From Thermoanaerobaculia bacterium (GTDB taxonomy: Bacteria > Acidobacteriota > Thermoanaerobaculia > Gp7-AA8): a DNA stretch of 64,000 nucleotides. A model generated the notes under the pieces. It was given only the letters and a program-made list of their open reading frames with translations, was not told the origin of the DNA and did not search any database. A program made the translations under genes and the position numbers. Every line of letters starts with the position of its first letter. Positions within the stretch are counted from its first letter, which is position 1. Positions 12,456 to 62,286 of this stretch are shown one piece after another. Where the stretch lies: NCBI GenBank assembly GCA_036488085.1, contig DASXHZ010000058.1, forward strand, positions 69,468-133,467, given 5' to 3'.

Positions 12456-14921
12456 CTAAGGATAATACCCGCGAATCGTCTTCGCGCGCCCTTCGGTGAC
12501 CTGCACGGTCACGTCGCGCCACTTGCCGCCTGGCTTGACGTCGTTGCCTGGGTAGAAGCCGAGGATGTACTGCGAGCGGAGCTCGTTATGGATGTCGTCG
12601 TAGATCTTCCCGAGCTGCGAGGCGGAATCGATCGCGTACATGTTTCCGCCGGTTTCGCCGCAGAAGGCGGCGAGTTGGTGCTTCACCTTGAGGTCCGCCC
12701 CCTTGAGGCCGACGGCGATCGCATAGATTGGGACCCCGGAGCGGCGCGCGTACTCCAATGCCTGATCGAACGTGTACTTCGAGGTGGTGTCGCGGCCGTC
12801 GGTGATGACCACCAGCGCCTTCGACCCCTTCACGCCGACGAAGTTGTAGAGCGAGTAGACGATCGCGTCGTACAGCGCCGTCGACTCCTCGGCGCGCAGC
12901 TTCGAGAGCGCGGTATTGAGCTCTTCGCGGCTCGACGACCACGTCTGCGCGACCTGCGGCTGCGAGTCGAACGAGACGAGGAACGCCTTGTCGCCCGGCC
13001 GCAGCACCTTCTCGAGGAACTCGGACGCCGAGGTCCGGGCCTCCGTCATGCGCGGCTGCATCGAGGCGGACGTGTCGATCGCGAGGCCGAGCGAGAGCGG
13101 GAGGTCCTTCACATGTTCGAACTTCGCGAGCTTGACCGGTTTTCCTTCGTCCAAGACTTTGAACGCGGATTGGTCGAGCGTGGTCACAGGACGTCCATGC
13201 GCCAGGACGGTCGTCGGCAACTCGACGAGGTGCACGTTCACTTCCTCGAGCTGTGAAGGTGCGTTCACGATCACCGTATCCTCGGACGTCGTGCCGTCGT
13301 CCAGCGTCGCTACCGCGCGGATGTAGCCGATCTGATCGCGGGAACCGACGTCGATCGTCTGCACGTACGGCGGATCGTGCAGCGTCGCGACCTTGTTCTC
13401 GTTCCAGAAGAGATCGACGCCTCGGAGAGCGTGTCCCTTCGGTACGCGGAGGTCGAGCAGGACGCGCGTTCGTCCCACGATTCGCGGCGGCGTCACACGC
13501 GGCGACGTGATGCGGACGCGAAACGGATCGGTGCCGGTGTTGACGAGGATCTCGTCGCCGCCGATCGGCTGTTCATGGGCGTCGATCGCGACCACGCGGA
13601 TGCGATGCGTCTGCGGAACGGCGCCGAGGTCGAGATCGAGCGAGAAGGGAGGCGAGCGGCGGACGGCGACCTTGCGGCCGTCGAGCCAGAACTCGACGCC
13701 CTTCGCGTCGTCACCCGCGAGAATCGTGTTGATCGTCTGCACGCCGCTGAGGAGCTCGTCGGGGAGCGGGACGATGCGGATGGCCGGAGTGTTCTCCGTT
13801 GCCGGTTGCTGGTTGGCGGCCTTCTTCTCATCCACTCCCGGCACTTCGAGGTCGCGTTCGATGATCGCCTCGGCTGCCGACGTTCGATCGGACACCTTGA
13901 TGCGGGCAGCGTAGGTACCGGGAGGCAGCATCCGGTCGACCACCAGCGGAAGCATCTCGCGCGCGGTCTCGACCGGGAAGTCGAACCGGTATCGGAAGTT
14001 CTCCCACATCCGGCCGTCGCGCGTCAGCTCGCCGACGAGATCGAGTGCGTATGTCTTCGACTGAGCGACGACCGCCGGCTGAATGGCGGAGCGCGGGATG
14101 TCGATCGACATCTGCACGTCCGTCTTGCCGTTCTCCGCGGCGGGGTAGGCGATGGTCACGCGCGGCTCGATTTTCGCGGCGTTCGGATTCGCGATGACGA
14201 CGCTATGCGCGATCCGTGCGATCAGCTCGGGGTCGACGGGCGGAGGCACGAAGAACTTGTAGAGCCGGTCGGCGTTGTCGGCGGACTGACGCAGGGCGCG
14301 AAGGAGATCGCCACTGGTCACACACTCCTCGTCGAACTTTAATTTGCCCGGTCCGTCGAAGATCTTGTCGTGTTTGAAGAGTTCACTCACGAGGCGGTTC
14401 CGAGGATCGAAGAGCACCCACTCGCGCTCGTCCTGCGGCAGAAAAAAGATCAGGCGCACGGGATGGCCGTACTCCGGCTCGTCGACGAATCCCGGATACG
14501 TCCAGATCTCGATCGGCCGGACGTAGCGCGGACAATCGACTTGCTGGACATCGGCCGGCTCGCCGCGCTGTAGAAAGGTCTTTCCGCGGTCGGTCGTGGC
14601 GCCGTGGTACTTCTCCTTCACGACTTCGAGCCGTTCATAATAGAGCTTGCGGAAAGAGTGGTTCGTCGTCCCTTGCGTCTTGTCGCGCCGCGTCCAGAAG
14701 TCGTCGATGAAGAGATCGCGCTGCGGGTCGGTCTCGAGCGTGAGGAAGGTGTTCAGCTCGGCCGGCGTGATGAGGGGCGTGACGTCGATGAGGAACTGCT
14801 GGTAGTCGTCGCCTAGCTTGGCGATGCGGTCTTTCTGCTCGCGCCGAGTGAGCTCGGACGCCGGCAGGATTGCCGGCGCCGCACAGAAGCTCAGCAGGAC
14901 GGCGAGAACGATCGCTTTCAC
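12456..14921 (-). CDS. Secreted 821-aa protein with C-terminal VWA domain (acidobacterial VWFA-related family)
   Basis: Signal peptide. N-terminal FWTRRDK block. C-terminal VWA domain (KAFLVSFDSQPQ...ALVVITDGRDTTSKY...PIYAIAVG). Paralog of the downstream gene. Confidence 0.75.
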   Translation of the reverse strand: MKAIVLAVLLSFCAAPAILPASELTRREQKDRIAKLGDDYQQFLIDVTPLITPAELNTFLTLETDPQRDLFIDDFWTRRDKTQGTTNHSFRKLYYERLEVVKEKYHGATTDRGKTFLQRGEPADVQQVDCPRYVRPIEIWTYPGFVDEPEYGHPVRLIFFLPQDEREWVLFDPRNRLVSELFKHDKIFDGPGKLKFDEECVTSGDLLRALRQSADNADRLYKFFVPPPVDPELIARIAHSVVIANPNAAKIEPRVTIAYPAAENGKTDVQMSIDIPRSAIQPAVVAQSKTYALDLVGELTRDGRMWENFRYRFDFPVETAREMLPLVVDRMLPPGTYAARIKVSDRTSAAEAIIERDLEVPGVDEKKAANQQPATENTPAIRIVPLPDELLSGVQTINTILAGDDAKGVEFWLDGRKVAVRRSPPFSLDLDLGAVPQTHRIRVVAIDAHEQPIGGDEILVNTGTDPFRVRITSPRVTPPRIVGRTRVLLDLRVPKGHALRGVDLFWNENKVATLHDPPYVQTIDVGSRDQIGYIRAVATLDDGTTSEDTVIVNAPSQLEEVNVHLVELPTTVLAHGRPVTTLDQSAFKVLDEGKPVKLAKFEHVKDLPLSLGLAIDTSASMQPRMTEARTSASEFLEKVLRPGDKAFLVSFDSQPQVAQTWSSSREELNTALSKLRAEESTALYDAIVYSLYNFVGVKGSKALVVITDGRDTTSKYTFDQALEYARRSGVPIYAIAVGLKGADLKVKHQLAAFCGETGGNMYAIDSASQLGKIYDDIHNELRSQYILGFYPGNDVKPGGKWRDVTVQVTEGRAKTIRGYYP

Positions 14922-14925
14922 GACA

Positions 14926-17580
14926 TCACGGATAGTAGCCGTGGATCGTCTTCGCGCGCCCTTCGCTCACCTGCACACTCACGTCATGCCACTTGCTCCC
15001 CGGTTTCACGCCGTCCGGCGGATAGAAGCCGAGGACGTATTGAGAGCGGAGCTCGTTCTGGATGTCGCGGTAGATGGCGCCGAGCTGGGACGCGTTCTCG
15101 ATCGTGTACATGTTGCCGCCGGTCTCGCTGCAGAACTTGGCGAGCTTGTACTTCACGTCGATCTCGGTCGGCTTCATGCCGATCCCGATGGCGTAGATCG
15201 GCACCGCCGCGCGCCGTGCGTACTCGACCGCCTGGTCGAACGAGAACTTCGATGACGTATCCGCGCCGTCGGTGATGACCACGAGCGCCTTCTGCCCCTT
15301 GACGCCGAGGAAGTTGTAGAGCGAGTAGACGATCGCGTCGTAGAGCGCGGTCGACTCCTCGGCGCGCAGTTTCGAGAGAGCCGCGTTCAGGTCGCCGAGC
15401 TTCGCCGACCACTTCTGGATGAGCTGCGGCTGCGTGTCGAAGGAGACGAGGAACGCCTTGTCGCCCGACTTCAGCACGTTCTTGAAGAACTCCGCCCCCG
15501 ACCTCTGCGCCTCCGCCATCCGCGGCTGCATCGAGCCGGAGGTGTCGACCGCCATACCGATTGACAGCGGCAGGTTCGCGACGTGCTCGAACTTCGCGAT
15601 CTTCACCGGCTTCCCTTCGTCGAGCACCTTGAACGACGACTGGCCGAGGGTGTTGATCGGGTGGCCGTTCGCGATGACCGTCGTCGGCAGCTCGACGAGG
15701 TGAACGTTCACCTCCTCCATGAACTGCGGCGTGTTGATCATCACGACGTCTTCGATCGGCGGCGTCGAATCGTCCTTCAGCGTCGCGACGGCGCGGAGGT
15801 ACGCGACGCCTTTGTTCTCCGGGATGTCGATCGTCTGGACGTACGGCGGACCATAGAGCGTCGCCACCGGCGTCTCGTTGTAGTAGAGCTGGAGCTTGTC
15901 GAGCTGCTTCCCGTCGGGCGTCCGCACCGACATCTCGACCTTCGTCTTCCCCTTGAGGTTCATCGCCACGCGCGGCGAGACGATGCGGACCCGGAAGGGA
16001 TCGGTGCCGGTGTTCACGACGATCTCGTCGCCGGTGATGATCTGCCCCTTGTCGTCGATCGCGACGGCGCGGACGTTGTGCACGCGCGGGACTTCGCCGA
16101 AGTCGAGGTCGAGCGTGTACGGCGGCTGCCGTTTCACCATGACTTTGCGGCCGTCGAGGTAGAACTCGACGCCTTTGATCCGGTCGCCGAACGCGATCGT
16201 CTCGATGTGCTGGAAACCCGAGAGGAGGTCTTCCGTGAGCGGGACGATGCGAAGACTCGTCTCGTTCGATTCCATCACGTCCTTGATGGACGTGAGCTGC
16301 GCAGTGGCGTCCGCCTTCTGCTGCTTCGCGACGGCGCTCTCGAAGATCTCCGGGACGTCGAGCTCGTTCTCGACGATCGCCTCGGCGCCGGAGTGCGCGT
16401 CGGTCACGCGGACGCGCGCTTTGTACTTGTTCGGACGGAGGAGCCGGTCGACGACCAGCGGGAACTTGTCGAGCTTTGAATCCGCCGGGAAGTCGAACCG
16501 GTAGCGGAAGTTCTCGAACATCTGGTCGTCTTTGAGGACCTCGCCGGTGACGTCGAAGCTGTAAACCGACGAGCCGCTGACCTCCTTCGCGGTCGCCTTG
16601 TCGCGCGGGATGAGAACCGTGATCTGCGCGTCGGTGCGGCTCCCCATCTTGGCGGGGTACTCGACCTTCATCTCGGCCGGAATCTTCGGCGCGTTCGGGT
16701 TCGCGATGACGATGGAGCGCAGCGTGTTGTGCATCGACTCCGGGTCGACCGGCGGCGGGTCCCAAACCTTCGTGACCAGGTCGGTGGAGTTGAGCTGGCT
16801 CTGCGCGATGGCGCGCATCAGCTCGTCGTAGGTGGTGCCGCACTCCATCTGCAACTGAGTCACGTTCATTTCGCCGGATACCCGGCTATTGAAGACTTTG
16901 TTCGACAGCGCCCCCGGGTCCTCAGTGGGGGTGGTCGCCTCTTCGTCCTGCGACACGAGCTCCGCGAGCGACTGATCGTTCGAGGTGATCGGCGCCCAGA
17001 GTCGGTAGTCGGACTGGCGGCGCGGGACGTAGAAGAGAAAACGGACGTCGTGGCCGAAGCTCGGGATGTAGAAGTACTTCCAGATCTCGATCGGCTGCAG
17101 CATGGTGCCGCAGTTCGGCACGACGATCTCGTTGGGCGGCCCTTGCAGCAGGAACATGTGGGCGCGGTCGTTGGAGAGCTGCTTGAACTTTGCGCGCGCT
17201 TCCTCGATGCGCGCGTAGTACGTATCGCGGAACGAGCTGTTGGTCGTGCCGGCCGCCTTGTCGCGGCGGCGCCAGAACTCGATGATCCAGGCATCGCGCT
17301 GCGGGTCGGTCTCGAGGATCAGGAACGTGTCGCGCTCCAGCGGCATGATGATCGGCTCGACGTCTTCGAGGAACTCCTGGTACTTCTCGGCGAGGTTCTT
17401 GATGCGGTCTTTTCGCTCGCGGCGCGAAAGTTTGCGGACGCCCGGATCCGCGGTGGGGTCCTTCTGTTTCGCCGCCGGCGCCGCATTCGGCTGCGGGTCT
17501 TGCTTCACCGGAGGGTCAGTCTGGGCGATGATGGGTAAAGCGAGAGCGACGGCAACAACTGCGACCGCGATCCTGTTCAT
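14926..17580 (-). CDS. Secreted 884-aa protein with C-terminal VWA domain (paralog of 12456-14921)
   Basis: Signal peptide MNRIAVAVVAVALALP. Same domain order as its neighbour. FWRRRDK block and a VWA MIDAS-like region. Confidence 0.75.
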   Translation of the reverse strand: MNRIAVAVVAVALALPIIAQTDPPVKQDPQPNAAPAAKQKDPTADPGVRKLSRRERKDRIKNLAEKYQEFLEDVEPIIMPLERDTFLILETDPQRDAWIIEFWRRRDKAAGTTNSSFRDTYYARIEEARAKFKQLSNDRAHMFLLQGPPNEIVVPNCGTMLQPIEIWKYFYIPSFGHDVRFLFYVPRRQSDYRLWAPITSNDQSLAELVSQDEEATTPTEDPGALSNKVFNSRVSGEMNVTQLQMECGTTYDELMRAIAQSQLNSTDLVTKVWDPPPVDPESMHNTLRSIVIANPNAPKIPAEMKVEYPAKMGSRTDAQITVLIPRDKATAKEVSGSSVYSFDVTGEVLKDDQMFENFRYRFDFPADSKLDKFPLVVDRLLRPNKYKARVRVTDAHSGAEAIVENELDVPEIFESAVAKQQKADATAQLTSIKDVMESNETSLRIVPLTEDLLSGFQHIETIAFGDRIKGVEFYLDGRKVMVKRQPPYTLDLDFGEVPRVHNVRAVAIDDKGQIITGDEIVVNTGTDPFRVRIVSPRVAMNLKGKTKVEMSVRTPDGKQLDKLQLYYNETPVATLYGPPYVQTIDIPENKGVAYLRAVATLKDDSTPPIEDVVMINTPQFMEEVNVHLVELPTTVIANGHPINTLGQSSFKVLDEGKPVKIAKFEHVANLPLSIGMAVDTSGSMQPRMAEAQRSGAEFFKNVLKSGDKAFLVSFDTQPQLIQKWSAKLGDLNAALSKLRAEESTALYDAIVYSLYNFLGVKGQKALVVITDGADTSSKFSFDQAVEYARRAAVPIYAIGIGMKPTEIDVKYKLAKFCSETGGNMYTIENASQLGAIYRDIQNELRSQYVLGFYPPDGVKPGSKWHDVSVQVSEGRAKTIHGYYP

Positions 17581-18740: not shown

Positions 18741-19874
18741 ATGTCCGAGTCCCCCATTCTTCAGGGTGATTTGTCCCGCGTCCACCTCCCGGACGTCCTC
18801 AGCTTCGTCTCGATGATCCGCAGGAGCGGGAAGCTCGTACTGCGGAGCAGCGCGATGGAGCGCACCCTGGTTTGGAAGGACGGCGACATCGTCTTCGCTA
18901 CCTCGAACTCGCCCGAGGACTCGCTCGGGTTGTTCCTCCTCAGAAACGGCAAGATCAGTCAGCAGCAGTACGACGAGTCGAAGCGCCGCGTAACGGCGCA
19001 GGTCCGCCACGGAAAGCTGCTCGTCCAGATGGGCGCCATCTCACCGAAGGATCTCTGGTGGGGCGTCAAGAATCAGGCGCTCGACATCATCTACCAGCTC
19101 TTCCACTGGCAGTCGGGGACGTTCGAGTTCGTGGAGACCATGGAGGAGATCTCGAGCGAGAAGATCGTCCTGTCGCTCCACACTTCGAGCGTGATCATGG
19201 AGGGCATCCGCCGGCTCGACGAGTCGGCGCGCATCCGCGAGAAGGTCCCGAACCTCGATGTCGTCTTCATGAAGATCCCGGGAGTGACGCCAGACTTCGA
19301 CGCGCTCGAGATGAGCGATTCCGAGGTCGCGGTGTACAACGACATCGACGGCATGAGGAGCGTGCGCCACCTCATTGCACAGGCGAACGACCTGACGGAG
19401 TTCGACGTCACTCGCATCCTCTTCCAACTCGTATCCGCGCGGCTCATCGAGCCGGCGCCGGAGGAGAAGTCGTTCCGGCCGGTCTTCCTGGACGTCGAGG
19501 ACTCGCCGGAGCTGCTGAAGGTGATCTCCACCTACAACGACATGTTCGGCCGGCTCTATGACGCGCTCCAGCGCGCGGTCGGCGAGGATCAGGCGCGGGA
19601 CATCTTCATGACGGCGTTGCAGCAGGCGGAGGGCGACGACCTCTGGAGCGGCGTCTTCTTCGATCAGTACGGCCGCTTCGACGAGAATATGCTCATCGCG
19701 AACATCTCCGAGCTCCCGTTCGAGCGCCGGAAAGCCGCGCTCGACGAGGGGTTGAACACGCTCCTCTCGGTGGAGCTGTTCGAGGTCTCGCAGCACCTCG
19801 ACGCCGCCGGGAAGGTCGATGTCTTCCGCTTCATCAGCGATCAGAAGGCGAGCCTGGAACGCGTCGGAGCGTAG
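18741..19874 (+). CDS. DUF4388 domain-containing protein
   Basis: N-terminal GDLSRVHLPDVLSFVSMIRRSGKLVL...DGDIVFA pattern typical of DUF4388. Confidence 0.5.
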   Translation: MSESPILQGDLSRVHLPDVLSFVSMIRRSGKLVLRSSAMERTLVWKDGDIVFATSNSPEDSLGLFLLRNGKISQQQYDESKRRVTAQVRHGKLLVQMGAISPKDLWWGVKNQALDIIYQLFHWQSGTFEFVETMEEISSEKIVLSLHTSSVIMEGIRRLDESARIREKVPNLDVVFMKIPGVTPDFDALEMSDSEVAVYNDIDGMRSVRHLIAQANDLTEFDVTRILFQLVSARLIEPAPEEKSFRPVFLDVEDSPELLKVISTYNDMFGRLYDALQRAVGEDQARDIFMTALQQAEGDDLWSGVFFDQYGRFDENMLIANISELPFERRKAALDEGLNTLLSVELFEVSQHLDAAGKVDVFRFISDQKASLERVGA

Positions 19875-54111: not shown

Positions 54112-54191
54112 CGAAAAGTCCGATGCGCCATCGGGATCGCCCGATAGGCCATCGGACAAACCTGATCCATGGATTTGATCAGGAGGCTCGC

Positions 54192-55268
54192 CTACTCGCG
54201 AATGCCTTCCGCTTGCAGGACGTCCTTGAACTGCTCCTTGTCGATCGCTTTGTCGTACGCGGAGCGGGCGGAGATCTTCTTGTCTTCGTAGAGCCGCTTG
54301 ATCGAGGTGTCCATGTCGATCATCCCTTCCTTGACGCCCGTCTGGATGGCTGACGTGATCTGCGGCGTTTTTCCCTCGCGGATCATGTTGCCGATGGCGG
54401 GGGAGGCGAAGAGGATCTCGATGGCGGCGACGCGGCCGCCGCCGAGCTTCGGCATGAGTTGCTGCGCGACGACGGCGCGGATCGTCTCGCCCAGGACGCC
54501 GCGGATACCGTCCTGCTCGGGGGCGGGGAAGACGCTGATAATGCGGTCCATCGTCTTGGCCGCATTGTTCGTGTGCAGCGTTCCGAAGACGAGGGTGCCG
54601 CGCTCGGCGGCGTTGAGCGCCATTTGGATGGTCTCGAGGTCGCGCATCTCGCCGACGAGGACGATGTCGGGGTCTTCGCGACCGGCGGCTTTCAGCGCCT
54701 CGGCGAACGATTTCGCGTGCGTCCCGATCTCGCGCTGGTGGATGAGACACTTCTTGTTCGGATGGACGAACTCGATCGGGTCTTCGATCGTGATGATGTG
54801 CTGTGAGCGCGTATCGTTGATTAGATCGATGATCGCGGCGAGCGTGGTCGACTTGCCGGAGCCGGTCGGTCCCGTGACGAGAACGAGTCCGCTGCGGAGC
54901 GCCGCGATCCGCCGGAGCTGATCGGGGAGGCCGAGCTGCTCGAGCGTCATGATCTTCGACGGGATGATGCGGAAGACCGCGCCGGCGCCGCGCTGCTGCC
55001 GGAAGAGGTTGACGCGGTAGCGCGCCACGTTCGGAATCTCGTAGGCCCAGTCGGTGTCGCCGCCCTCGAGGAACTCCTCCCAGTTGCGCCTCGGCGTCAC
55101 CGCCGAGAGCATCTCGTTGAAGTCGCCCTCGGTGACGATGCGATAGCGGATCGGCTCCATCGCGCCGGAGGCGCGGAGCATCGGCGGGCGGCCGACGGTC
55201 AGATGAAAGTCCGACGCCCCGCGGTCGTTCATCAGTCGGAGGAAGCGGTCGATCTTGTTGGAGGGCAT
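54192..55268 (-). CDS. pilT: Type IV pilus retraction ATPase PilT
   Basis: 358-aa protein with Walker A GPTGSGKST, Asp box, Walker B DIVLVGEMRD and His box GTLVFGTLHT. The upstream ~300 aa of the track ORF were rejected. Confidence 0.88.
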   Translation of the reverse strand: MPSNKIDRFLRLMNDRGASDFHLTVGRPPMLRASGAMEPIRYRIVTEGDFNEMLSAVTPRRNWEEFLEGGDTDWAYEIPNVARYRVNLFRQQRGAGAVFRIIPSKIMTLEQLGLPDQLRRIAALRSGLVLVTGPTGSGKSTTLAAIIDLINDTRSQHIITIEDPIEFVHPNKKCLIHQREIGTHAKSFAEALKAAGREDPDIVLVGEMRDLETIQMALNAAERGTLVFGTLHTNNAAKTMDRIISVFPAPEQDGIRGVLGETIRAVVAQQLMPKLGGGRVAAIEILFASPAIGNMIREGKTPQITSAIQTGVKEGMIDMDTSIKRLYEDKKISARSAYDKAIDKEQFKDVLQAEGIRE

Positions 55269-55273
55269 GGCTG

Positions 55274-57781
55274 TCAGACCGTCTTGGTGCCGGCGATGAA
55301 CGCGGGCGTGACCATCGGCTCGAATTCTTCTTTCTTCTGGGCGGCGAGATACGCGGTTTCGGCGGTGATCTGGTCGCGCTTGACGAGGTCCTTCAACGCG
55401 TCGTCGAACGTCTGCATGCCGAAGCTGCGGCCGATTTGCATGGCGGAGTAGATCTGGTACGTCTTCTCGTCGCGGATCATGTTCGCGATGTTGCTCGTTC
55501 CCTTGAGGACCTCGAAGGCGGCGACCTGCTTGCGGGCTTCCTTCGCTGGCAGAAGGCGCTGCGCGATGCAGTACTTCATCGACTCGGAAAGCGAGGCGCG
55601 GATCTGCGGCTGCTCGTCGGCGGGAAAGCTCGAGAGGATGCGGTCGATCGCCTTCGGCGCGCTTGTCGAATTGAGAGTGCCGAGGACGATGTGGCCGGTC
55701 TCGGCCGCGGTGAGCGCCAGCGTGATTGACTCGTTGTCGCGCAGCTCGCCGATCACGATGACGTCGGGATCTTCGCGGAGGGCGGCGCGGAGCGCGCGGG
55801 CGAACGACTGCGTGTGCGATCCGACCTCGCGCTGGTTGACGAGGCAGCTCTTGAACGGATGGACGAACTCGACCGGGTCCTCCATCGTGAGGACGTGATC
55901 GGAACGCGTCTCGTTGAAGAGATTCACGAGCGCCGCGAGGGTCGTCGACTTCCCGGAGCCCGACGGGCCGCAGACGAGGACGAGTCCCTGGTGGTAGTCG
56001 GAGATCTCGGCGAGCTGCGCCGGAAGGCCGAGATCGAGGATCGTCGGCGGCTTCTCCGGGATGACGCGGAAGACGGCGTTGTAGCCGCTCTGGTCGTAGA
56101 AGACGTTCCCGCGATAGCGGCCCGCCTGCGGGATGTAGTAGCAGAAGTCGAGCTGGTGCTCTTTCTGGATCGTCTCCCACTGCGCCGGCGTCAGGATCTC
56201 GCGCAGCATCTCTTCCGTCTGTTCCGGTGTGAAGGGATCCGCCTGCGCGCGGAGCAGGTCGGCCGAGATCCGGAGGATGGGCGGCTGTCCGACGGAGAGA
56301 TGGAAATCCGATGCGCCCTGATTGCGCGTGGCGATCAGGAGGGTGTTCAGCTTCGCGTCGCCCGACTTGCCGGTGACGGTTAGCGCCTGCTTCCGTACGG
56401 CGTCGATCTGCGACTGTGTTTTTTGCTCCGTGATCGCGATCTCGTCGAGGATGTCGATGGCGCGCGCGCGGACGTTGCGCTCCGGATCGTTCGCCGCCAT
56501 CTGCAGCAACGCGTTTTGTACCTGCGGGTGTTTGAAGTGCCGCAGCGCCTGCATCACCTCGATGCGGATGTCGGGCGATGGATCGGCGAGCATCTTGCCG
56601 AGGGCGGGGAGGGAGCGCGGGTCGCCGATGCGGCCGAGCGACTCGACCGCGGCCCAGCGGACGTCGGCATCGGCGAGCGCCGCCATGAGCGGCTCGACGG
56701 CACGGGAGTCCTTCAGGCGGCCGAGCGTGTCAGCGGCGGCGATGCGGATCCACCAGTCGGGATCCTTCAGCAGCGCGATGGTCGACGGGACGATGCGCGG
56801 ATCGTCGAAGGCGCTCGCGACGGCGATGGCCGCCGCGCGCACGTCGTCGTCGGGATCGCGCAGCAGCTCGATGGCCGGCTCGATGAGCTGGTCGCCGAAG
56901 GCGCGGAGGGAGTCGAGCGCGCGGTCGCGTACGAATCCGGCGAGCGATTTCGAGAAGAGGATGAAGCGTTTGACGATCTCGTGCGGATCGCCGACGCCGA
57001 CCAGGATCTTCAGCACGGCGCTGCGCGTGGCCGCGTCGCCCGAGGCGACCAGCGGCAGGAGCTTCTCGGCAAACTCGACGCCCCGGCCGGCCGCGACGCG
57101 CGTGAGCGCCTCGACGATCGCCTGCTGTGTCGCGTAGCCGACACGCGGCAGCTCTTTCACGAGGATGTCGACTGCGGGCGCAGGCGCGCGTTCCGCGAGG
57201 ACGTGTACCGCCTTTTCGCGGATCGACCGGTCCTCGTCCCCGGCGATCTGGCGCCAGCGCGCAACGACGCGGTCGTCCATCTCGCTCGAGGCGAGCTTGT
57301 TGAGGTACGGCAGCCGCTCCTCGGGCCATCCCTGCATCGCCAGTTGCCAGATCAGCGGGGCGATCGCGCCGTTCAGCGGCGCTTCGAGAAGAACGCGCTT
57401 CGCCGACTCCTGCATCTCGCGCGTCTCTTTCGTTTCCTTCGCCGGGACGGCGAGGATCTGCGCCGCGCGTTGGTCGATGCCGGGAAGGTTGAGCGCGAAG
57501 AAGGTGCTGACCGCGGCGCGGATCGCCGCTTCCGGCTTTCCCTTCGCCTCGACTAGGAAGACGTCGAACGACTCCGGATCGCGTGTCCGCAGAAGCACCT
57601 TCCCCGCCGTGTCGCGGAAGGTCCGGTCAGGTCGGAAAAACATCCATGTAATGTCGCGCGCGCGGATGTTCTCCGCGGTCGCGATGCGCACGAGCAGTTC
57701 GTCGCGCTCCTCGTTCGTCTGGAACTCTTTGTTCGACAGACGACGGACGGTGTCCTTGAGGTCGGATTGGAAGAGGGCCAT
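55274..57781 (-). CDS. HEAT-repeat N-terminal domain fused to a PilT/PilU-family ATPase
   Basis: N-terminal ~480 aa of HEAT/PBS-lyase-like repeats (DPDWWIRIAAADTLGRLKD, ADVRWAAVESLGRIGD, PDIRIEVMQAL). C-terminal PilT domain with GPSGSGKST, DVIVIGELRD and GHIVLGTLNS. Confidence 0.8.
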   Translation of the reverse strand: MALFQSDLKDTVRRLSNKEFQTNEERDELLVRIATAENIRARDITWMFFRPDRTFRDTAGKVLLRTRDPESFDVFLVEAKGKPEAAIRAAVSTFFALNLPGIDQRAAQILAVPAKETKETREMQESAKRVLLEAPLNGAIAPLIWQLAMQGWPEERLPYLNKLASSEMDDRVVARWRQIAGDEDRSIREKAVHVLAERAPAPAVDILVKELPRVGYATQQAIVEALTRVAAGRGVEFAEKLLPLVASGDAATRSAVLKILVGVGDPHEIVKRFILFSKSLAGFVRDRALDSLRAFGDQLIEPAIELLRDPDDDVRAAAIAVASAFDDPRIVPSTIALLKDPDWWIRIAAADTLGRLKDSRAVEPLMAALADADVRWAAVESLGRIGDPRSLPALGKMLADPSPDIRIEVMQALRHFKHPQVQNALLQMAANDPERNVRARAIDILDEIAITEQKTQSQIDAVRKQALTVTGKSGDAKLNTLLIATRNQGASDFHLSVGQPPILRISADLLRAQADPFTPEQTEEMLREILTPAQWETIQKEHQLDFCYYIPQAGRYRGNVFYDQSGYNAVFRVIPEKPPTILDLGLPAQLAEISDYHQGLVLVCGPSGSGKSTTLAALVNLFNETRSDHVLTMEDPVEFVHPFKSCLVNQREVGSHTQSFARALRAALREDPDVIVIGELRDNESITLALTAAETGHIVLGTLNSTSAPKAIDRILSSFPADEQPQIRASLSESMKYCIAQRLLPAKEARKQVAAFEVLKGTSNIANMIRDEKTYQIYSAMQIGRSFGMQTFDDALKDLVKRDQITAETAYLAAQKKEEFEPMVTPAFIAGTKTV

Positions 57782-57867
57782 TCTGTGGCCCGAATTGTAG
57801 GTGGTCAGGTTGCCCGGTTGCCAGGTTGCCGACTCGGCCACCCGGCAACCTGGCTACCCTTGTCTCA

Positions 57868-58236
57868 CTAATCTCTGTTCAAAGTGCTGATCAGCAGCCC
57901 CGCTCCCAGCGCCAGCGCGGCCACTCCTGCCGCCACCTTCCCTGGGTTCTCCTTGGCGTACTCCGTTGCCTTCGTCGTCCCCTGGTTCAGGTAGTCGCGC
58001 GCGGTGTTGAGGTACTGCTCCATATCGACGCTTTGCATCTGCGTCTTGAGGTTGTCGATCATCTCCTCGGAGACGCCGAGGCGCCCGAGGAACTGCTCCA
58101 GTCCGCGGTTCTGAGCGCGCGACTGCCCACAGGTCGGACAGAGGTCGGTGCCGGTCGTCGTGCCTGCGCCGAAACGCGACGTATCGCTCGCGCTCGTCGT
58201 TCCGATTCCGCTGGTGAGTGGTGTGTCTTGGGCCAT
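57868..58236 (-). CDS. Small protein with CPTCGQ zinc-ribbon-like motif and C-terminal TM helix
   Basis: 122-aa ORF co-directional with the PilT genes. TM segment VAAGVAALALGAGLLISTL. Confidence 0.4.
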   Translation of the reverse strand: MAQDTPLTSGIGTTSASDTSRFGAGTTTGTDLCPTCGQSRAQNRGLEQFLGRLGVSEEMIDNLKTQMQSVDMEQYLNTARDYLNQGTTKATEYAKENPGKVAAGVAALALGAGLLISTLNRD

Positions 58237-58721: not shown

Positions 58722-61121
58722 TTATTTGGAGTACGTAACGCGCCAGATGACATTCGCTCCGTCATCCGAGACGAGGAGTGAACCGTCGCCGAGGACGAGC
58801 AGCCCGACGGGGCGCCCCCAGACGCTGTTCGAGGCAGGATCGGGCATCCATCCGATGACGAAATCGTCGTAGCCGCCGGCCGGCTTGCCGTCGCGGAACG
58901 GGACGGAAATGACGCTGTAGCCGGTGCGCCGCGATCGGTTCCAGGAGCCGTGCAACGCGACGAACGCGCGGCCGCGGTATTCGGGCGGGAACATCGTGCC
59001 GTTGTAGAAGACGAGACCGAGAGGCGCGGAGTGCGCCTGAATGAGAAGCGCCGGAACGACCGCTTTCGAGACGAGGTCGGGACGTTCGCCGCGGCGCCGC
59101 GGATCTTCGTGCGCACCGAGGTACGCGTACGGCCAGCCGTAGAACGCGTTGGCGCGGACGCCGGTAATGTAGTCGGGGACGAGATCGTCGCCGAGGCCAT
59201 CGCGCTCGTTCACCGACGTCCAGAGCTCGTGGGTCGTCGGGTTCCACGCGAGGCCGACTGGATTACGGAGGCCGAACGCGAAGACACGGGCGTTCTTGCC
59301 GTTCGCGTCATACGCCATGATCGCCGCGCGCGGCGGATCCTCGCGCGAGATGTTCGACGCCGAGCCGATGGCGACGAAGAGCTGCGTGCCGTCGGCGCTG
59401 AAGACGATGTTGCGGGTCGAGTGGCCGCCGCCCGGCAGCGGCGCGAGCTTCTGCACGCCGCCGCGCGACGCCGTCTCGCCGGCGCGGTACGGCATCCGGT
59501 AGATTCCGTCCTCGGCGCCGACGTAGAGCCACTCGTCATGGATCGCGAGGCCGAACGGATCGGCGATCTGGGTGGTGAAGGTGTAGCGTTTGCTGTTCCG
59601 CAGAATGCTGATCTGGCTGGCGCCGCTCTGCGCCACGATGATGTCGCCATTCGGCGCGAGGATCATGTTGCGCGGATCGTCGATGCCGGTGGCATAGGCC
59701 GCGATGTGAAAGCCGGGCGGAAGGTGGAGTTGTGCATTCGCCGGACGCTTCCGCGTCCACGGCGCGTTCGCGGCACTCGGGGTCGCGTACGGCGCCGGAA
59801 GCTGGTCGAGCCGGATCTCGTGGTGTCCGAGGCCGGTGCTCGTCGTGGTGACCGGCTGGGCGTCGCCGCCGCACGCGGCCAGCGACAGGAGAAGAGTCGC
59901 GAATGCAATCCGGCGCACGACGTAAAGCCTATGCAACGTCGTCGCCGCGGCGATCGCCATGATCGGAACGACCGGAACGCGAAACCGCGCCTCTGCTTCG
60001 CTGCCGGCGGAGATCAGGACGAAGTACGCGATGGTCAGTGCGACTAGGAGCGACAGGGTGCGATCGCGTTGCCACAGGAGGTAGGTGCCGAAAAGGGCGA
60101 GCAGCGTGATGGCGTGCGTCCAGACATCGAGGACAATGGCGAGGAGCGTCGGTGGGACGCTGCTGACCATCTCCATCGCCTCGGAATCGCTATCGAAGAG
60201 GTTCACGCAGACACCGCGAACGAGGACGGTCGTGAGGCCGAGCGGGTGCTGCAACGCGATCCGGCGTCCGATCTTGCCGAACCACATCGCATGTTGCGCC
60301 GGATTGAGATCGCCGGCGCTCGCGGTGTGGAGCGTCCGCTCGATCTCGGTGTCCGCGTCGGACGCGAGCTCCTCCTGTCGGTCTCTCAACGCCTCGTAGA
60401 AGTCGTAGTCGTCGAAGATCGCGAGCGAAGGTGCGGCACGGTGGTCGAGCATGTTGATCCCCGCGACGTCCGCGATCGCGAAGACGCCCGTCCGCGCCTT
60501 GTTCCGCGCCATCCACGCGATCGGCAGAATCAGCGACGCGATCACGAAGACGATGACGTGCTTGCGGCGAATCATCACGATCGCGAGCACCGCGAAGTAG
60601 AGAATTGATGCGGGCCGGATCAGCACAAGCGCGCCGGTTAGAAGCCCCATCACGATCATGTTCGCGGCCCTCCCGCGCAACACGAGCCAGATGAGCGCGA
60701 AGAGTCCGACGGTGAAAAGCGTCTCGGTGAGCACCTTGTTCGCGTAGTGGATCGACGGCGTGTCGAGCGCGAAGATCAGTCCCGCGATGAAAGCGATTCC
60801 GCGCGAGAGGCGCTGCCGCGCAAAGAGGTAGATCGCCATCGCGAGGGCTACGTTCATCAGGTGCTGGACGAGGACGACGGCGGTGAAGGTGCGGAACGCC
60901 ATCAGGAACAGCGGATAGCCCGGCGTGCGAAACGTCTCGATGACTCCGTTCGCGCGGAGGAAACCGTGCCCGGCGAGCATCGACCGCGCCGGCTCGATGT
61001 AGGTCCTCGAGTCAGGGAAGAAGAAGTCTCCGTTGCTTGCGGCGAAGTAGAGGAGATTGGTGAGCAGCGTCAACGCGGCGAGGATCGCCAGATCGATCGG
61101 TGCGCGCCGCATCGAGCGCAT
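58722..61121 (-). CDS. Fusion protein: GT-C-fold membrane glycosyltransferase (ArnT/PMT-like) + periplasmic PQQ-type sugar dehydrogenase (SGDH) beta-propeller
   Basis: N-terminal ~400 aa with many TM helices and FFPDSRTYIEPARSMLAGHGF. A TM/lipobox-like segment RRIAFATLLLSLAACGG, then GLAWNP...ELWTSVNERDGLGDDLVPDYI...FYGWPY. One continuous 799-codon ORF. Confidence 0.6.
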   Translation of the reverse strand: MRSMRRAPIDLAILAALTLLTNLLYFAASNGDFFFPDSRTYIEPARSMLAGHGFLRANGVIETFRTPGYPLFLMAFRTFTAVVLVQHLMNVALAMAIYLFARQRLSRGIAFIAGLIFALDTPSIHYANKVLTETLFTVGLFALIWLVLRGRAANMIVMGLLTGALVLIRPASILYFAVLAIVMIRRKHVIVFVIASLILPIAWMARNKARTGVFAIADVAGINMLDHRAAPSLAIFDDYDFYEALRDRQEELASDADTEIERTLHTASAGDLNPAQHAMWFGKIGRRIALQHPLGLTTVLVRGVCVNLFDSDSEAMEMVSSVPPTLLAIVLDVWTHAITLLALFGTYLLWQRDRTLSLLVALTIAYFVLISAGSEAEARFRVPVVPIMAIAAATTLHRLYVVRRIAFATLLLSLAACGGDAQPVTTTSTGLGHHEIRLDQLPAPYATPSAANAPWTRKRPANAQLHLPPGFHIAAYATGIDDPRNMILAPNGDIIVAQSGASQISILRNSKRYTFTTQIADPFGLAIHDEWLYVGAEDGIYRMPYRAGETASRGGVQKLAPLPGGGHSTRNIVFSADGTQLFVAIGSASNISREDPPRAAIMAYDANGKNARVFAFGLRNPVGLAWNPTTHELWTSVNERDGLGDDLVPDYITGVRANAFYGWPYAYLGAHEDPRRRGERPDLVSKAVVPALLIQAHSAPLGLVFYNGTMFPPEYRGRAFVALHGSWNRSRRTGYSVISVPFRDGKPAGGYDDFVIGWMPDPASNSVWGRPVGLLVLGDGSLLVSDDGANVIWRVTYSK

Positions 61122-61122
61122 T

Positions 61123-62286
61123 TTATGCGCGAAGCAGGCTCTCCAATTCGTCCAGCCGCGAGGCGCGATTGCGCGCGTCGTCGAGCGTGATCAGCCCCTG
61201 CCGCAGCAGCGCTACGAGCGAGTCTTCGAAGGAGATCATCCCCTGTCGTTTCCCCATCGTGATCTCCGTCGCGAACTGCTGCAGCTTGTTGCCCCGAATG
61301 TGGTTTCGCACCGGCTGATTGGCGAGTACGACCTCCACCGCCACGGCCCGCCCCGCGTTGTCGGCGCGCGGGATCAACTGTTGGATGACGATGGCATTCA
61401 ACGACAACGCGAGTTGCTGGCGGATCTGGTTCTGCTGCTGCGGCGGAAAGACGTCGATGATGCGGTGGATTGCCTGCGCCGCGTCGCTGGTGTGGAGCGT
61501 CGAGAGGATCAAGTGCCCCGTCTCCGCCGCCGTCAGCGCGATCGACACCGTCTCCAGATCGCGCATCTCGCCGACCAGGATGACGTCGGGGTCCTGCCGC
61601 AGCGCCGCGCGGAGCGCCGCCGCGAAAGACGGTGCGTCGCGCCCGATCTCGATCTGTTCGATGACCGACTTTGCGTTCCGGTGCTCGTACTCCACCGGGT
61701 CCTCGATGCTGACGATGTGGCGCTGCTCGCTGTGATTGATGATCTCGACGAGCGACGCGAGAGTCGTTGTTTTTCCCGACCCGGTCGGCCCGCAGACCAG
61801 GACCAGGCCGCGTGTCGGCTTCACGAGGTCGGCGAGCGACGGCGGGAGATGGAGCTGCGAGAGCGTCGGCACATCGGTCGGCAAGGCACGGATGGCCGCG
61901 GCGAGTGTCCCGCGCTGCCGGTGTACGTTGACCCTGAACCGGTACCGGTTCAGGTACACGGAGAAGTCGGCCGCGCCGTTCTCGCGGAGCTGCTCCTGTA
62001 GCCGCGGGGTGAGGAAGCCGGCGAAGTAGGTCGTCACGTCGTCGCCGTCGAGGAGCTGCTCGTCGATCCGGATCAGCCGTCCGCCGAGGCGTGCGATCGG
62101 CGGGTTGCCGGCGATGAGGAGGAGATCGCTGGCACCCCGCTGGGTCATCTCGCTCAGCAGCCGCTCCAGCGGGTTCCCCTCCGGTACCGCCTGCGGCGCA
62201 GCCTGCAGCGCCTGCCGCCGCTCGCCCCCCTCATTCAGCTCGCGAACGAGCTGCTCTAGTTCTTCGTCACGTGTCAGTCTGCCCAT
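61123..62286 (-). CDS. PilT/PilU-family ATPase (third paralog)
   Basis: GPTGSGKTT, DVILVGEMRD and GHLILSTLHT. Its stop lies 1 nt from the downstream gene's start. Confidence 0.85.
   Translation of the reverse strand: MGRLTRDEELEQLVRELNEGGERRQALQAAPQAVPEGNPLERLLSEMTQRGASDLLLIAGNPPIARLGGRLIRIDEQLLDGDDVTTYFAGFLTPRLQEQLRENGAADFSVYLNRYRFRVNVHRQRGTLAAAIRALPTDVPTLSQLHLPPSLADLVKPTRGLVLVCGPTGSGKTTTLASLVEIINHSEQRHIVSIEDPVEYEHRNAKSVIEQIEIGRDAPSFAAALRAALRQDPDVILVGEMRDLETVSIALTAAETGHLILSTLHTSDAAQAIHRIIDVFPPQQQNQIRQQLALSLNAIVIQQLIPRADNAGRAVAVEVVLANQPVRNHIRGNKLQQFATEITMGKRQGMISFEDSLVALLRQGLITLDDARNRASRLDELESLLRA

Follow-up and report, generated by a model that had tools for sequence, protein, structure and literature searches.

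A HEAT-repeat-fused PilT-family ATPase and its PilT-like partner form a conserved gene pair in uncultured Acidobacteriota

Introduction

Among the closest described systems are tandem genes of the PilT family. In Vibrio cholerae, Pseudomonas aeruginosa and Myxococcus xanthus, pilT- and pilU-type genes are adjacent and co-oriented, one of the two products is more PilT-like, and cooperation between them is expected. M. xanthus also carries the adjacent PilT paralogues MXAN_6705 and MXAN_6706, which are highly conserved in Myxococcales; deletion of MXAN_6706 causes a partial S-motility defect, and according to the same study neither protein carries a HEAT domain and a conserved His box is present in all five M. 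xanthus paralogues (PMC13584747). Here we analyse a gene pair on a 64,000-nucleotide stretch from a Thermoanaerobaculia bacterium (contig DASXHZ010000058.1, positions 69,468 to 133,467; hereafter the window, whose full-length coordinates are used throughout). The first gene encodes HEAT-PilT, a PilT-family ATPase fused to an N-terminal HEAT-repeat solenoid, and the second a PilT-like protein, hereafter the partner. Residue numbers refer to the 835-aa HEAT-PilT product translated from its ATG start.

Much of what follows concerns the His box, which lies at the interface between neighbouring subunits of these ATPase rings. In PilB, H413 and H420 flank the T411 side chain of the adjoining packing unit on either side at the closed packing-unit interface (PMC5424180), and in PilT the inter-chain contact between T221 and H230, with a C-alpha distance of ~5.7 Å, defines the closed interface (PMC6858323). 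The second His-box histidine contacts the gamma-phosphate of ATP (PMC6858323, PMC5424180). Mixed rings of type IV filament ATPases have been hypothesised and are undemonstrated (PMC6711533).

The pair described here resembles pilT-pilU in adjacency, orientation, expected cooperation and the presence of one more PilT-like member. It differs in that both proteins score higher against PilT than against PilU, the accessory gene comes first, one member carries a HEAT domain, and the His-box triad is split between the two proteins, whereas PilT and PilU each have a full His box. As in MshE and PilB, with their cyclic di-GMP-binding MshEN domain, and in Thermus PilF, with its GSPII domains, a regulatory or adaptor module stands ahead of the core formed by N2D and the C-terminal domain (CTD); those proteins, however, are extension ATPases of the PilB/GspE clade with unrelated N-terminal domains, whereas here a HEAT solenoid precedes a PilT-clade core. 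MXAN_6705 and MXAN_6706 are likewise adjacent PilT paralogues, and MXAN_6705 has a long disordered N-terminus, as do many partners; from this published description, orthology to the partner family is a possible lead. The solenoid itself shares the repeat pattern D-x-D-x-x-V/I-R...A-L-G and the helical-hairpin fold with HEAT proteins of the PBS-lyase type (CpcE/NblB, alphaRep). Unlike CpcE and NblB, it carries a family-specific DWWxR signature, is fused to an ATPase and has no lyase context.

The gene itself is already in the databases under a generic name. We found no description of a HEAT-PilT fusion in full-text literature searches, which brought up only papers on the unrelated PIN-domain "PilT N-terminus". 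What is new is the recognition of a deeply conserved module of HEAT-PilT and partner, and of the split His-box triad.

Results

Both halves of HEAT-PilT matched their families above the cut-offs. Pfam returned HEAT_2 at 126.3 bits (gathering threshold 27.7), HEAT at 61 (23.5) and HEAT_PBS at 53.9 (20.9) for the N-terminal half, and T2SSE at 132 bits for the C-terminal half. The NCBIfam model TIGR01420 (pilT_fam) scored 418 bits against a cut-off of 319, its positions 2–343 of 343 aligning to residues 478–819, and the ATPase half (C-terminal 360 aa) is 48% identical to P. aeruginosa PilT (3JVU) over the full N2D and CTD. An earlier note on this DNA, made from the sequence alone, had described just such a fusion, with Walker A, Asp box and Walker B in place and the second His-box histidine replaced. 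Alignment to 3JVU bore this out: GPSGSGKST, LTMEDPVEF and DPDVIVIGELRD are present, and P. aeruginosa H229 corresponds to Asn704 in ETGHIVLGTLNS.

The longest open reading frame (ORF), 55274..57841 on the minus strand, encodes 855 aa. Its translation is uninterrupted by stop or frameshift between the HEAT region and the ATPase, and its codon-position G+C (0.67/0.43/0.88) is typical for a coding frame in this genome (window G+C, 63–68%). The earlier note had taken this whole interval as the gene; the single minus-strand ORF stands, and its 5' end is probably to be moved. The true start is most likely the in-frame ATG at 57781, which gives the N-terminus MALFQSDLKD, because close homologues share a MALF start and the 20 residues upstream are unconserved; on these grounds the GTG at 57841 is probably not the start and was rejected in favour of this ATG.

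A search of 5.8 billion proteins yielded more than 120 clusters of close homologues (68–92% identity, ~833 aa) from NCBI, JGI, ENA and Logan assemblies, all with both HEAT and T2SSE. One of them, from the Thermoanaerobaculia metagenome-assembled genome (MAG) SMAG_U4539, is 92% identical to the window protein. Where named, these homologues were called only "PilT/PilU family type 4a pilus ATPase" and came from MAGs of Thermoanaerobaculia or Acidobacteriota. The mean share of the commonest residue per column was 0.87–0.97 in the ATPase half and 0.54–0.87 in the HEAT half. Judged by this conservation, HEAT-PilT is encoded by a genuine gene on which selection acts.

An exhaustive HMMER search of 1.84 billion representatives extended the family to at least 34 distant clusters at 50% identity (~800–980 aa), which are 30–46% identical to HEAT-PilT with near full-length alignment; 28 align from the N-terminus and six from about residue 135–160. 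Further groups of 910–1160 aa have the C-terminal part of the HEAT region and the ATPase in common. Named distant members include MAGs of Myxococcota, Polyangiales and Acidobacteriota, and no cultured carrier was found, the profile search and a scan of GTDB species genomes giving MAGs only. That the long ORF is an artefact of a frameshift, a misassembly or a chimeric join between a HEAT gene and a pilT gene deserves next to no credence. Nothing was found in its support, and frameshifts in long-read MAGs (L020, L063) merely show that such errors occur. Against it stand the recurrence of the ~833-aa architecture in more than 120 clusters from independent assemblies, in 80 species-level genomes and in the distant clusters, and the continuity of reading frame and codon bias.

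The gene directly downstream proved to be conserved along with the fusion. Using the N-terminal domain as query, we scanned a single genome for each GTDB species (an initial alignment of diverse N-termini, A2, proved too divergent to use here) and obtained 80 loci. All belong to uncultured Thermoanaerobaculia or Acidobacteriota; two carry the label Vicinamibacteria. Where enough downstream DNA was available, the partner lay directly 3' of HEAT-PilT in 65 of 68 loci, and all 65 pairs combined E-[RK]-G-T…H in the partner with Asn or Ser at the second His position of HEAT-PilT. Among 11 distant fusions that were looked up, eight had a T2SSE gene directly after HEAT-PilT (L084–L087, L090, L171, L172 and the contig of P0139, the last read from a gene list only, with no DNA); two more (L088, L089) showed a truncated PilT-like gene at the contig end, and the eleventh was L003. 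All eight distant lineages with usable downstream sequence thus show the pair. A reverse metagenome scan seeded with the partner N2D gave 14 partner-type loci that extend far enough upstream, and in 12 of these HEAT-PilT immediately precedes the partner gene. Junctions in relatives are often 4-nt overlaps or similarly tight.

Distant partners are orthologous, sharing an IDRFLxLM N-terminus and a GTLHTN motif. None of them has the first His, in whose place stands T, I, L, M, V or F; of the best 120 database relatives of one partner, 118 also lack it. From these comparisons, the conserved unit is the gene pair and not the fusion alone. In the window, co-transcription from one operon is most likely, given the 5-nt spacer and a terminator-like hairpin found only after the partner; terminator-like sites as a whole were not more numerous than expected from shuffled sequence. 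Coordinates of the pair, its motifs and its neighbours are collected in Table 1.

Table 1. Coordinates of the HEAT-PilT/partner pair, its motifs and neighbouring genes in the window
Feature	Coordinates	Strand	Remarks
HEAT-PilT coding sequence	55274..57781	minus	835 aa, ATG start, stop codon 55274-55276; homologues ~833 aa, MALF start
20 extra codons of the longest ORF	57782..57841	minus	probably 5' untranslated; unconserved in any homologue; inside strong RNA hairpin
N-terminal all-helical HEAT/ARM-like solenoid	56372..57781	minus	residues 1-470, ~28 helices, AlphaFold2
Solenoid part matched by HEAT profile HMMs	56453..57283	minus	about residues 167-443; Pfam, NCBIfam
DWWIR signature	56744..56758	minus	residues 342-346; most conserved HEAT-domain motif in distant members
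Linker between solenoid and ATPase	56351..56419	minus	about residues 455-477; pLDDT about 58-69; mean column conservation 0.55
Complete PilT-type ATPase (N2D + CTD)	55325..56350	minus	residues 478-819, TIGR01420
Walker A GPSGSGKST	55943..55969	minus	Ser replaces canonical PilT Thr133 (Geobacter metallireducens numbering)
Asp box LTMEDPVEF	55865..55891	minus	E634, D635, E638 invariant
Walker B with catalytic Glu, DPDVIVIGELRD	55736..55771	minus	E679 invariant, 121/121
Variant His box ETGHIVLGTLNS	55667..55702	minus	Thr and first His (H697) kept; second is Asn704, codon 55670-55672
Diverged AIRNLIRE-like motif NIANMIRD	55469..55492	minus	alignment to PilT
Spacer, HEAT-PilT stop to partner ATG	55269..55273	minus	5 nt, operon junction
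Partner-type PilT	54192..55268	minus	358 aa, second gene of module
Partner His box ERGTLVFGTLHT	54570..54605	minus	conserved Thr replaced by Arg, first His by Thr; second His kept
Terminator-like hairpin and T-run	54120..54134	minus	~60 nt past partner stop; possible operon end, weak
Leader spacer	57782..57867	minus	86 nt, 5' of HEAT-PilT ATG
CPxCG protein	57868..58236	minus	122 aa
Membrane/beta-propeller protein	58722..61121	minus	799 aa
Third PilT paralogue	61123..62286	minus	387 aa
Tandem von Willebrand factor A proteins	12456..14921; 14926..17580	minus	821 and 884 aa
DUF4388 protein	18741..19874	plus	377 aa

The partner is the most PilT-like of the three PilT paralogues in the window (TIGR01420, 439 bits; 52% identical to P. 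aeruginosa PilT). The earlier note had placed HEAT-PilT directly upstream of a canonical pilT. A PilT gene does follow after 5 nt; it is not strictly canonical, because its His box, AAERGTLVFGTLHT (E-R-G-T…H), lacks the conserved Thr (G. metallireducens T221), which is Arg, and the first His, which is Thr. The His-box triad is thereby divided: HEAT-PilT has the Thr and the first His without the second, and the partner has the second His without the Thr (Arg or Lys) and the first His (Thr). Lys or Arg at the Thr position of the partner was found only where HEAT-PilT has lost the second His, that is, in the window clade, L085 and L090. At 15 loci with a His-retaining HEAT-PilT, this position of the partner was Thr in 14 and Ala in one. 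The two-gene module, the complementary deviation in the partner's His box and the restriction of Asn to a clade were all missed by the earlier note.

The split triad suggests that the two proteins act in one physical complex, possibly a mixed ring. This idea draws on the published geometry of the interface and on the partner Lys/Arg that would face the Asn/Ser site. By analogy with that geometry, the Lys/Arg could plausibly reach the gamma-phosphate of the neighbouring subunit, where the smaller Asn/Ser would make room for it. At one interface of a mixed ring, the HEAT-PilT Thr would insert beside the second His of the partner in a near-canonical manner; at the other, the partner Arg/Lys would enter the ATP site of HEAT-PilT as a trans finger, with Asn/Ser in place of the second His. 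We surveyed further published interface contacts (positions 32, 59, 73, 81, 124, 133, 161–164, 178, 180, 195, 217, 259, 269, 271, 277 and 339) and found no second clear complementary pair among them, though several family-specific changes. We consider it doubtful that the pair builds an obligate hetero-hexamer, a 3+3 alternating PilT ring whose triad would be shared between HEAT-PilT and partner.

By most sequence criteria HEAT-PilT belongs to the PilT clade and is not a PilU, PilB or GspE. Against the PDB it scored 328 bits with P. aeruginosa PilT, 312 and 305 with PilT4, 232 with PilU and ~90 with PilB. Other NCBIfam clades remained under their cut-offs (PilB, 108 versus 676 bits; GspE, 111 versus 630; DotB, 143 versus 463), as did VirB11 and TadA, which scored far too low for both HEAT-PilT and partner. 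Compared with PilT of P. aeruginosa (3JVU/3JVV) and PilT4 of G. metallireducens (6OJX), HEAT-PilT shares the Walker A, the Asp box, the Walker B Glu and the first His. It departs from classical PilT in the missing second His and in its size, 835 aa in place of a compact ~345–370 aa, of which the solenoid accounts for an added 470 aa. PilT, as opposed to PilU, reportedly carries an AIRNLIRE motif near its C-terminus (Aukema et al. 2005). The corresponding NIANMIRD of HEAT-PilT is identical at four of eight positions, with conservative L>M and E>D exchanges in addition, and AIGNMIRE of the partner at six of eight. At other interface positions, Thr133 is Ser in HEAT-PilT (Ser or Ala in the family), Arg124 is Gln and Ser73 is Cys; in the window clade Gly277 is Lys or Arg (Lys in the window protein) and Arg278, beside the nucleotide site, is Gln. 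In the partner, the Arg124 equivalent is Ser.

Asn704 aligns to P. aeruginosa H229 and G. metallireducens H230, the gamma-phosphate-binding histidine. Among 121 close homologues this position was Asn in 113, Ser in seven and Thr in one, and never His. The Walker A Lys (K611), E634, D635 and E679 were invariant in all 121. The second His position of the wider fusion family is H, N, S, Q or P, and most distant HEAT-PilTs keep the His; Asn is therefore a clade feature and no defining trait of the fusion. A variant His box, which the earlier note had coupled to the fusion, thus holds for the window clade and is not a hallmark of the architecture. The HEAT subunit still appears to bind ATP, and probably hydrolyses it, because its catalytic residues are under strong purifying selection. 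Its full motor activity seems dispensable, because the second His has been lost repeatedly and some lineages have lost all catalytic residues. In P. aeruginosa PilT, the H229A exchange abolishes twitching and retains phage sensitivity, so that the protein is partly functional (PMC6858323, PMC12607626). The ATP site of HEAT-PilT is altered and probably attenuated.

These observations bear on the notion that HEAT-PilT is a regulator and not a motor, binding ATP and hydrolysing it poorly or not at all. Its role would then be that of a brake, a sensor or an assembly factor that, for instance, tethers the partner or occupies the site where PilC or PilM docks. The H229A phenotype speaks for it, as do the loss of Arg278 in the window clade and the repeated loss of catalytic residues, with Gln or Pro at the second His position in several lineages and fully degenerate Walker A/B motifs in four proteins (P0193, P0215, P0237, P0248). 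The invariance of the Walker A Lys, the Asp-box Glu and Asp and the Walker B Glu in the close family would nevertheless be unexpected for a pseudo-enzyme, as would the higher conservation of the ATPase half relative to the HEAT half. One of the degenerate proteins, P0193, also has a degenerate partner (locus L171), so that its lineage may be a poor guide. Taken together, we regard a purely regulatory HEAT-PilT as improbable.

In L171 (6001–10956), the HEAT subunit P0193 and its 796-aa partner are both degenerate. The partner Walker A reads GASGSGTST and the Walker B motifs of the two proteins VVSDLPD and VLGAVPT; the module apparently persists here as a pair of pseudo-ATPases. Outside Thermoanaerobaculia, many partner-type PilTs (L084, L087, L090, L171, L172) carry long, low-complexity and apparently disordered N-terminal extensions (totals 443–796 aa), reminiscent of what is described for MXAN_6705. 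In L090 (3615–12116), HEAT-PilT is followed by three T2SSE-family genes (645, 359 and 564 aa) and a HEAT_2 protein, a four-ATPase array. At three of the GTDB loci (L020, L063, L008), HEAT-PilT and/or partner are split by frameshifts or run into long ORFs; assembly indel errors are likelier than pseudogenes, because these are mostly long-read 'MFD' MAGs.

To describe the N-terminal half, we used a full-length AlphaFold2 model of HEAT-PilT (m4dca478a6737), built on 121 sequences. The HEAT half was modelled with confidence as helices only, 28 of them between residues 2 and 467, with a predicted local distance difference test (pLDDT) score mostly of 85–95 over residues 10–440. Pfam HEAT matches are limited to the part given in Table 1, and the model extends one helical solenoid over residues 1–470. 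The ATPase half was poorly resolved (pLDDT 40–70; overall predicted template modelling score, pTM, 0.48). We left the packing of solenoid and ATPase uninterpreted, since the model gives neither a confident ATPase half nor a confident inter-domain arrangement. Structure modelling, as proposed in the earlier note, thus succeeded for the first half only; its other proposals, the Pfam check and the database search for the same architecture, gave the positive results reported above. Foldseek comparison with the PDB matched the N-terminal half to alphaRep and PP2A-A HEAT solenoids and the C-terminal half to PilT4 and PilT as top hits, and sequence matches to designed alphaRep proteins in the PDB agree with a HEAT fold.

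The signature DWWxR marks the solenoid across the family. D342, W343, W344 and R346 are all invariant in the 121 close homologues; among 20 sequences down to 22% identity, W344 is invariant and the other three are conserved at 90% or more. A profile search with the N-terminal domain returned essentially only proteins that also carry T2SSE: among the best 120 hits there was no standalone HEAT domain, save one truncated entry. An adaptor or regulatory role of the HEAT domain, as the earlier note had suggested, is plausible. NCBIfam gave partial matches to NblB (68.9 bits, cut-off 300) and CpcE (45.6 bits, cut-off 330) in the HEAT region; identity as a phycobiliprotein lyase or NblB was ruled out, as the scores are far under the equivalog cut-offs and a lyase context is absent.

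Many PilT-clade metagenome proteins (P0142–P0269) carry other N-terminal extensions of 100–600 aa (totals 450–1160 aa). N-terminally extended PilTs appear to be common and undescribed.

The genomic surroundings link the module to type IV pili in some relatives. An orthologue 75% identical to the window protein (L003) lies inside a complete type IV pilus (T4P) cluster, flanked on one side by minor-pilin genes (GspH-like and other N-methyl pseudopilins, a 1038-aa N-methyl protein) and on the other by PilC, an MshEN-type PilB, a secretin and pilins, and PilB, PilC or secretin genes occur near HEAT-PilT in L037, L072 and L085. From homology and context only, a role at the type IVa pilus machine is the best-supported assignment. 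Genes for pilT are commonly unlinked from pil clusters. We also considered that the module may not belong to a pilus at all and may instead drive secretion, DNA uptake or defence, its PilT likeness reflecting ancestry only. The window itself, which carries no T4P core genes, would fit this, and so would the variable neighbourhood: apart from the partner, no neighbour is conserved, the best being a CPxCG protein at 7 of 80 loci, with 0–6 for the rest. However, HEAT-PilT and partner share 48–52% identity with genuine PilT and exceed the subfamily cut-off for PilT/PilU, the scores for GspE, PilB, DotB, VirB11 and TadA are far too low, and some orthologues lie within T4P clusters. A search with the PADLOC defence models yielded generic partial HEAT-ARM and P-loop matches but no specific one, and we rejected a defence-system reading of the module for that reason. 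A function away from the pilus is thus very improbable.

Directly upstream of HEAT-PilT lies the 122-aa CPxCG protein, with a C-terminal hydrophobic helix and no Pfam match; it is kept at this position only in the seven closest of the 80 loci, and in L001. The 86-nt spacer between the two genes forms a very stable imperfect hairpin from CCAGGUUGCC…GGCAACCUGG (minimum free energy −51 kcal/mol, z = −4.8 versus shuffles), and a second, small hairpin in the leader includes the start codon. The leader hairpin may be a regulatory or repetitive extragenic palindromic (REP)-like element.

Further upstream, the third PilT paralogue of the window has a fully canonical His box, ETGHLILSTLHT, and a ~40-aa N-terminal extension, and is 41% identical to P. 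aeruginosa PilT. Its stop codon lies 1 nt before the gene of the 799-aa protein, whose N-terminus is of a multi-pass membrane (glycosyltransferase-like) type and whose C-terminus is a GSDH/beta-propeller. L004, L030, L034 and L095 likewise have a PilT of this third type, a few kb ahead of the module. Elsewhere in the window, both tandem proteins end in a C-terminal von Willebrand factor A domain and one of them also has a bacterial Ig domain. The 377-aa protein has an N-terminal DUF4388 domain, which corresponds to the PATAN domain of cyanobacterial regulators of type IV pilus ATPases, and is a possible regulator of the module.

Discussion

In this study we describe a PilT-family ATPase with a HEAT solenoid whose gene nearly always lies next to a second, PilT-like gene. 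We propose that HEAT-PilT is a subunit of a PilT-family hexameric ATPase and acts with the downstream partner in one complex at the base of the type IVa pilus, a proposal for which we see an even balance of chances. Its subunits could form one mixed ring or two rings in association, most likely at the cytoplasmic base of the pilus machine as a retraction or regulatory motor. The partner would be the main, more PilT-like engine. The HEAT subunit would provide a large scaffold for protein binding, which probably serves to dock it to a component of the machine, to a polar landmark or to a regulator. Changed gamma-phosphate sensing in the HEAT subunit would alter coupling to the neighbouring subunits. 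The output of such a module could be retraction force, regulation or localisation.

Several points weigh against this proposal. Physical interaction of the two proteins is proposed from sequence and gene context, and the AlphaFold2 model (pTM 0.48; pLDDT 40–70 in the ATPase) does not position the solenoid confidently against the ATPase. In the window, no pilB, pilC, pilM–Q or pilin genes lie within the 64 kb. Asn, Ser and Gln are polar and could still sense the gamma-phosphate, so that catalysis may not be attenuated. The partner tree puts the Lys/Arg lineages in one nested clade, and the covariation across the two proteins therefore amounts to a single evolutionary event. L092, with Asn in HEAT-PilT and Thr in the partner, is a counter-example, and an association of Ser with Arg within the clade (Fisher p=0.014) is confounded by phylogeny. 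We therefore rejected the covariation as proof of a mixed ring and treat it as suggestive only. Finally, the two genes are apart in L003, L012, L037, L072, L093 and L095, and PilT and PilU, the best-studied tandem pair, form independent homohexamers (PMC6821130).

The last two points would also suit an independent accessory motor, in which HEAT-PilT forms its own homohexamer as a self-sufficient or a PilU-like, PilT-dependent retraction ATPase. Asn704 would then replace His as gamma-phosphate sensor, and adjacency would reflect an old tandem duplication with loose coupling, as in pilT-pilU, whose products cooperate as separate rings. The catalytic residues besides the second His are indeed all invariant, and most distant HEAT-PilTs have retained that His. 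Where it is replaced, polar residues (N, S, T, Q) take its place, of the sort that other ASCE/AAA+ ATPases typically have as phosphate sensors. However, near-universal and often overlapping junctions at 30–46% identity argue for stoichiometric co-production, and the partner family, defined by loss of the first His, almost never occurs without HEAT-PilT upstream. In addition, both subunits lack Arg124, and the equivalent R123D exchange in P. aeruginosa led to loss of twitching and pilus retraction. We conclude that an independent motor is a serious possibility, albeit an unlikely one, and retain joint action of HEAT-PilT and partner in one complex as the working model.

The field has yet to settle what recruits and regulates pilus retraction motors and what couples them to paralogous ATPases. 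The HEAT-PilT/partner pair, deeply conserved and translationally coupled, is a natural test case for these questions and for mixed rings, since one member bears the large scaffold and the residues known to underlie ATPase cooperativity between subunits are shared out over the two. If the ring were indeed mixed, its active sites would fall into two chemically different classes, three HEAT arms would sit at its periphery, and no natural ring of this kind would have preceded it among type IV filament ATPases. Uncultured Acidobacteriota and Myxococcota that abound in soil and sediment widely carry the module. It is annotated only as "PilT", so that under automated annotation a motor module of a distinct kind goes unnoticed.

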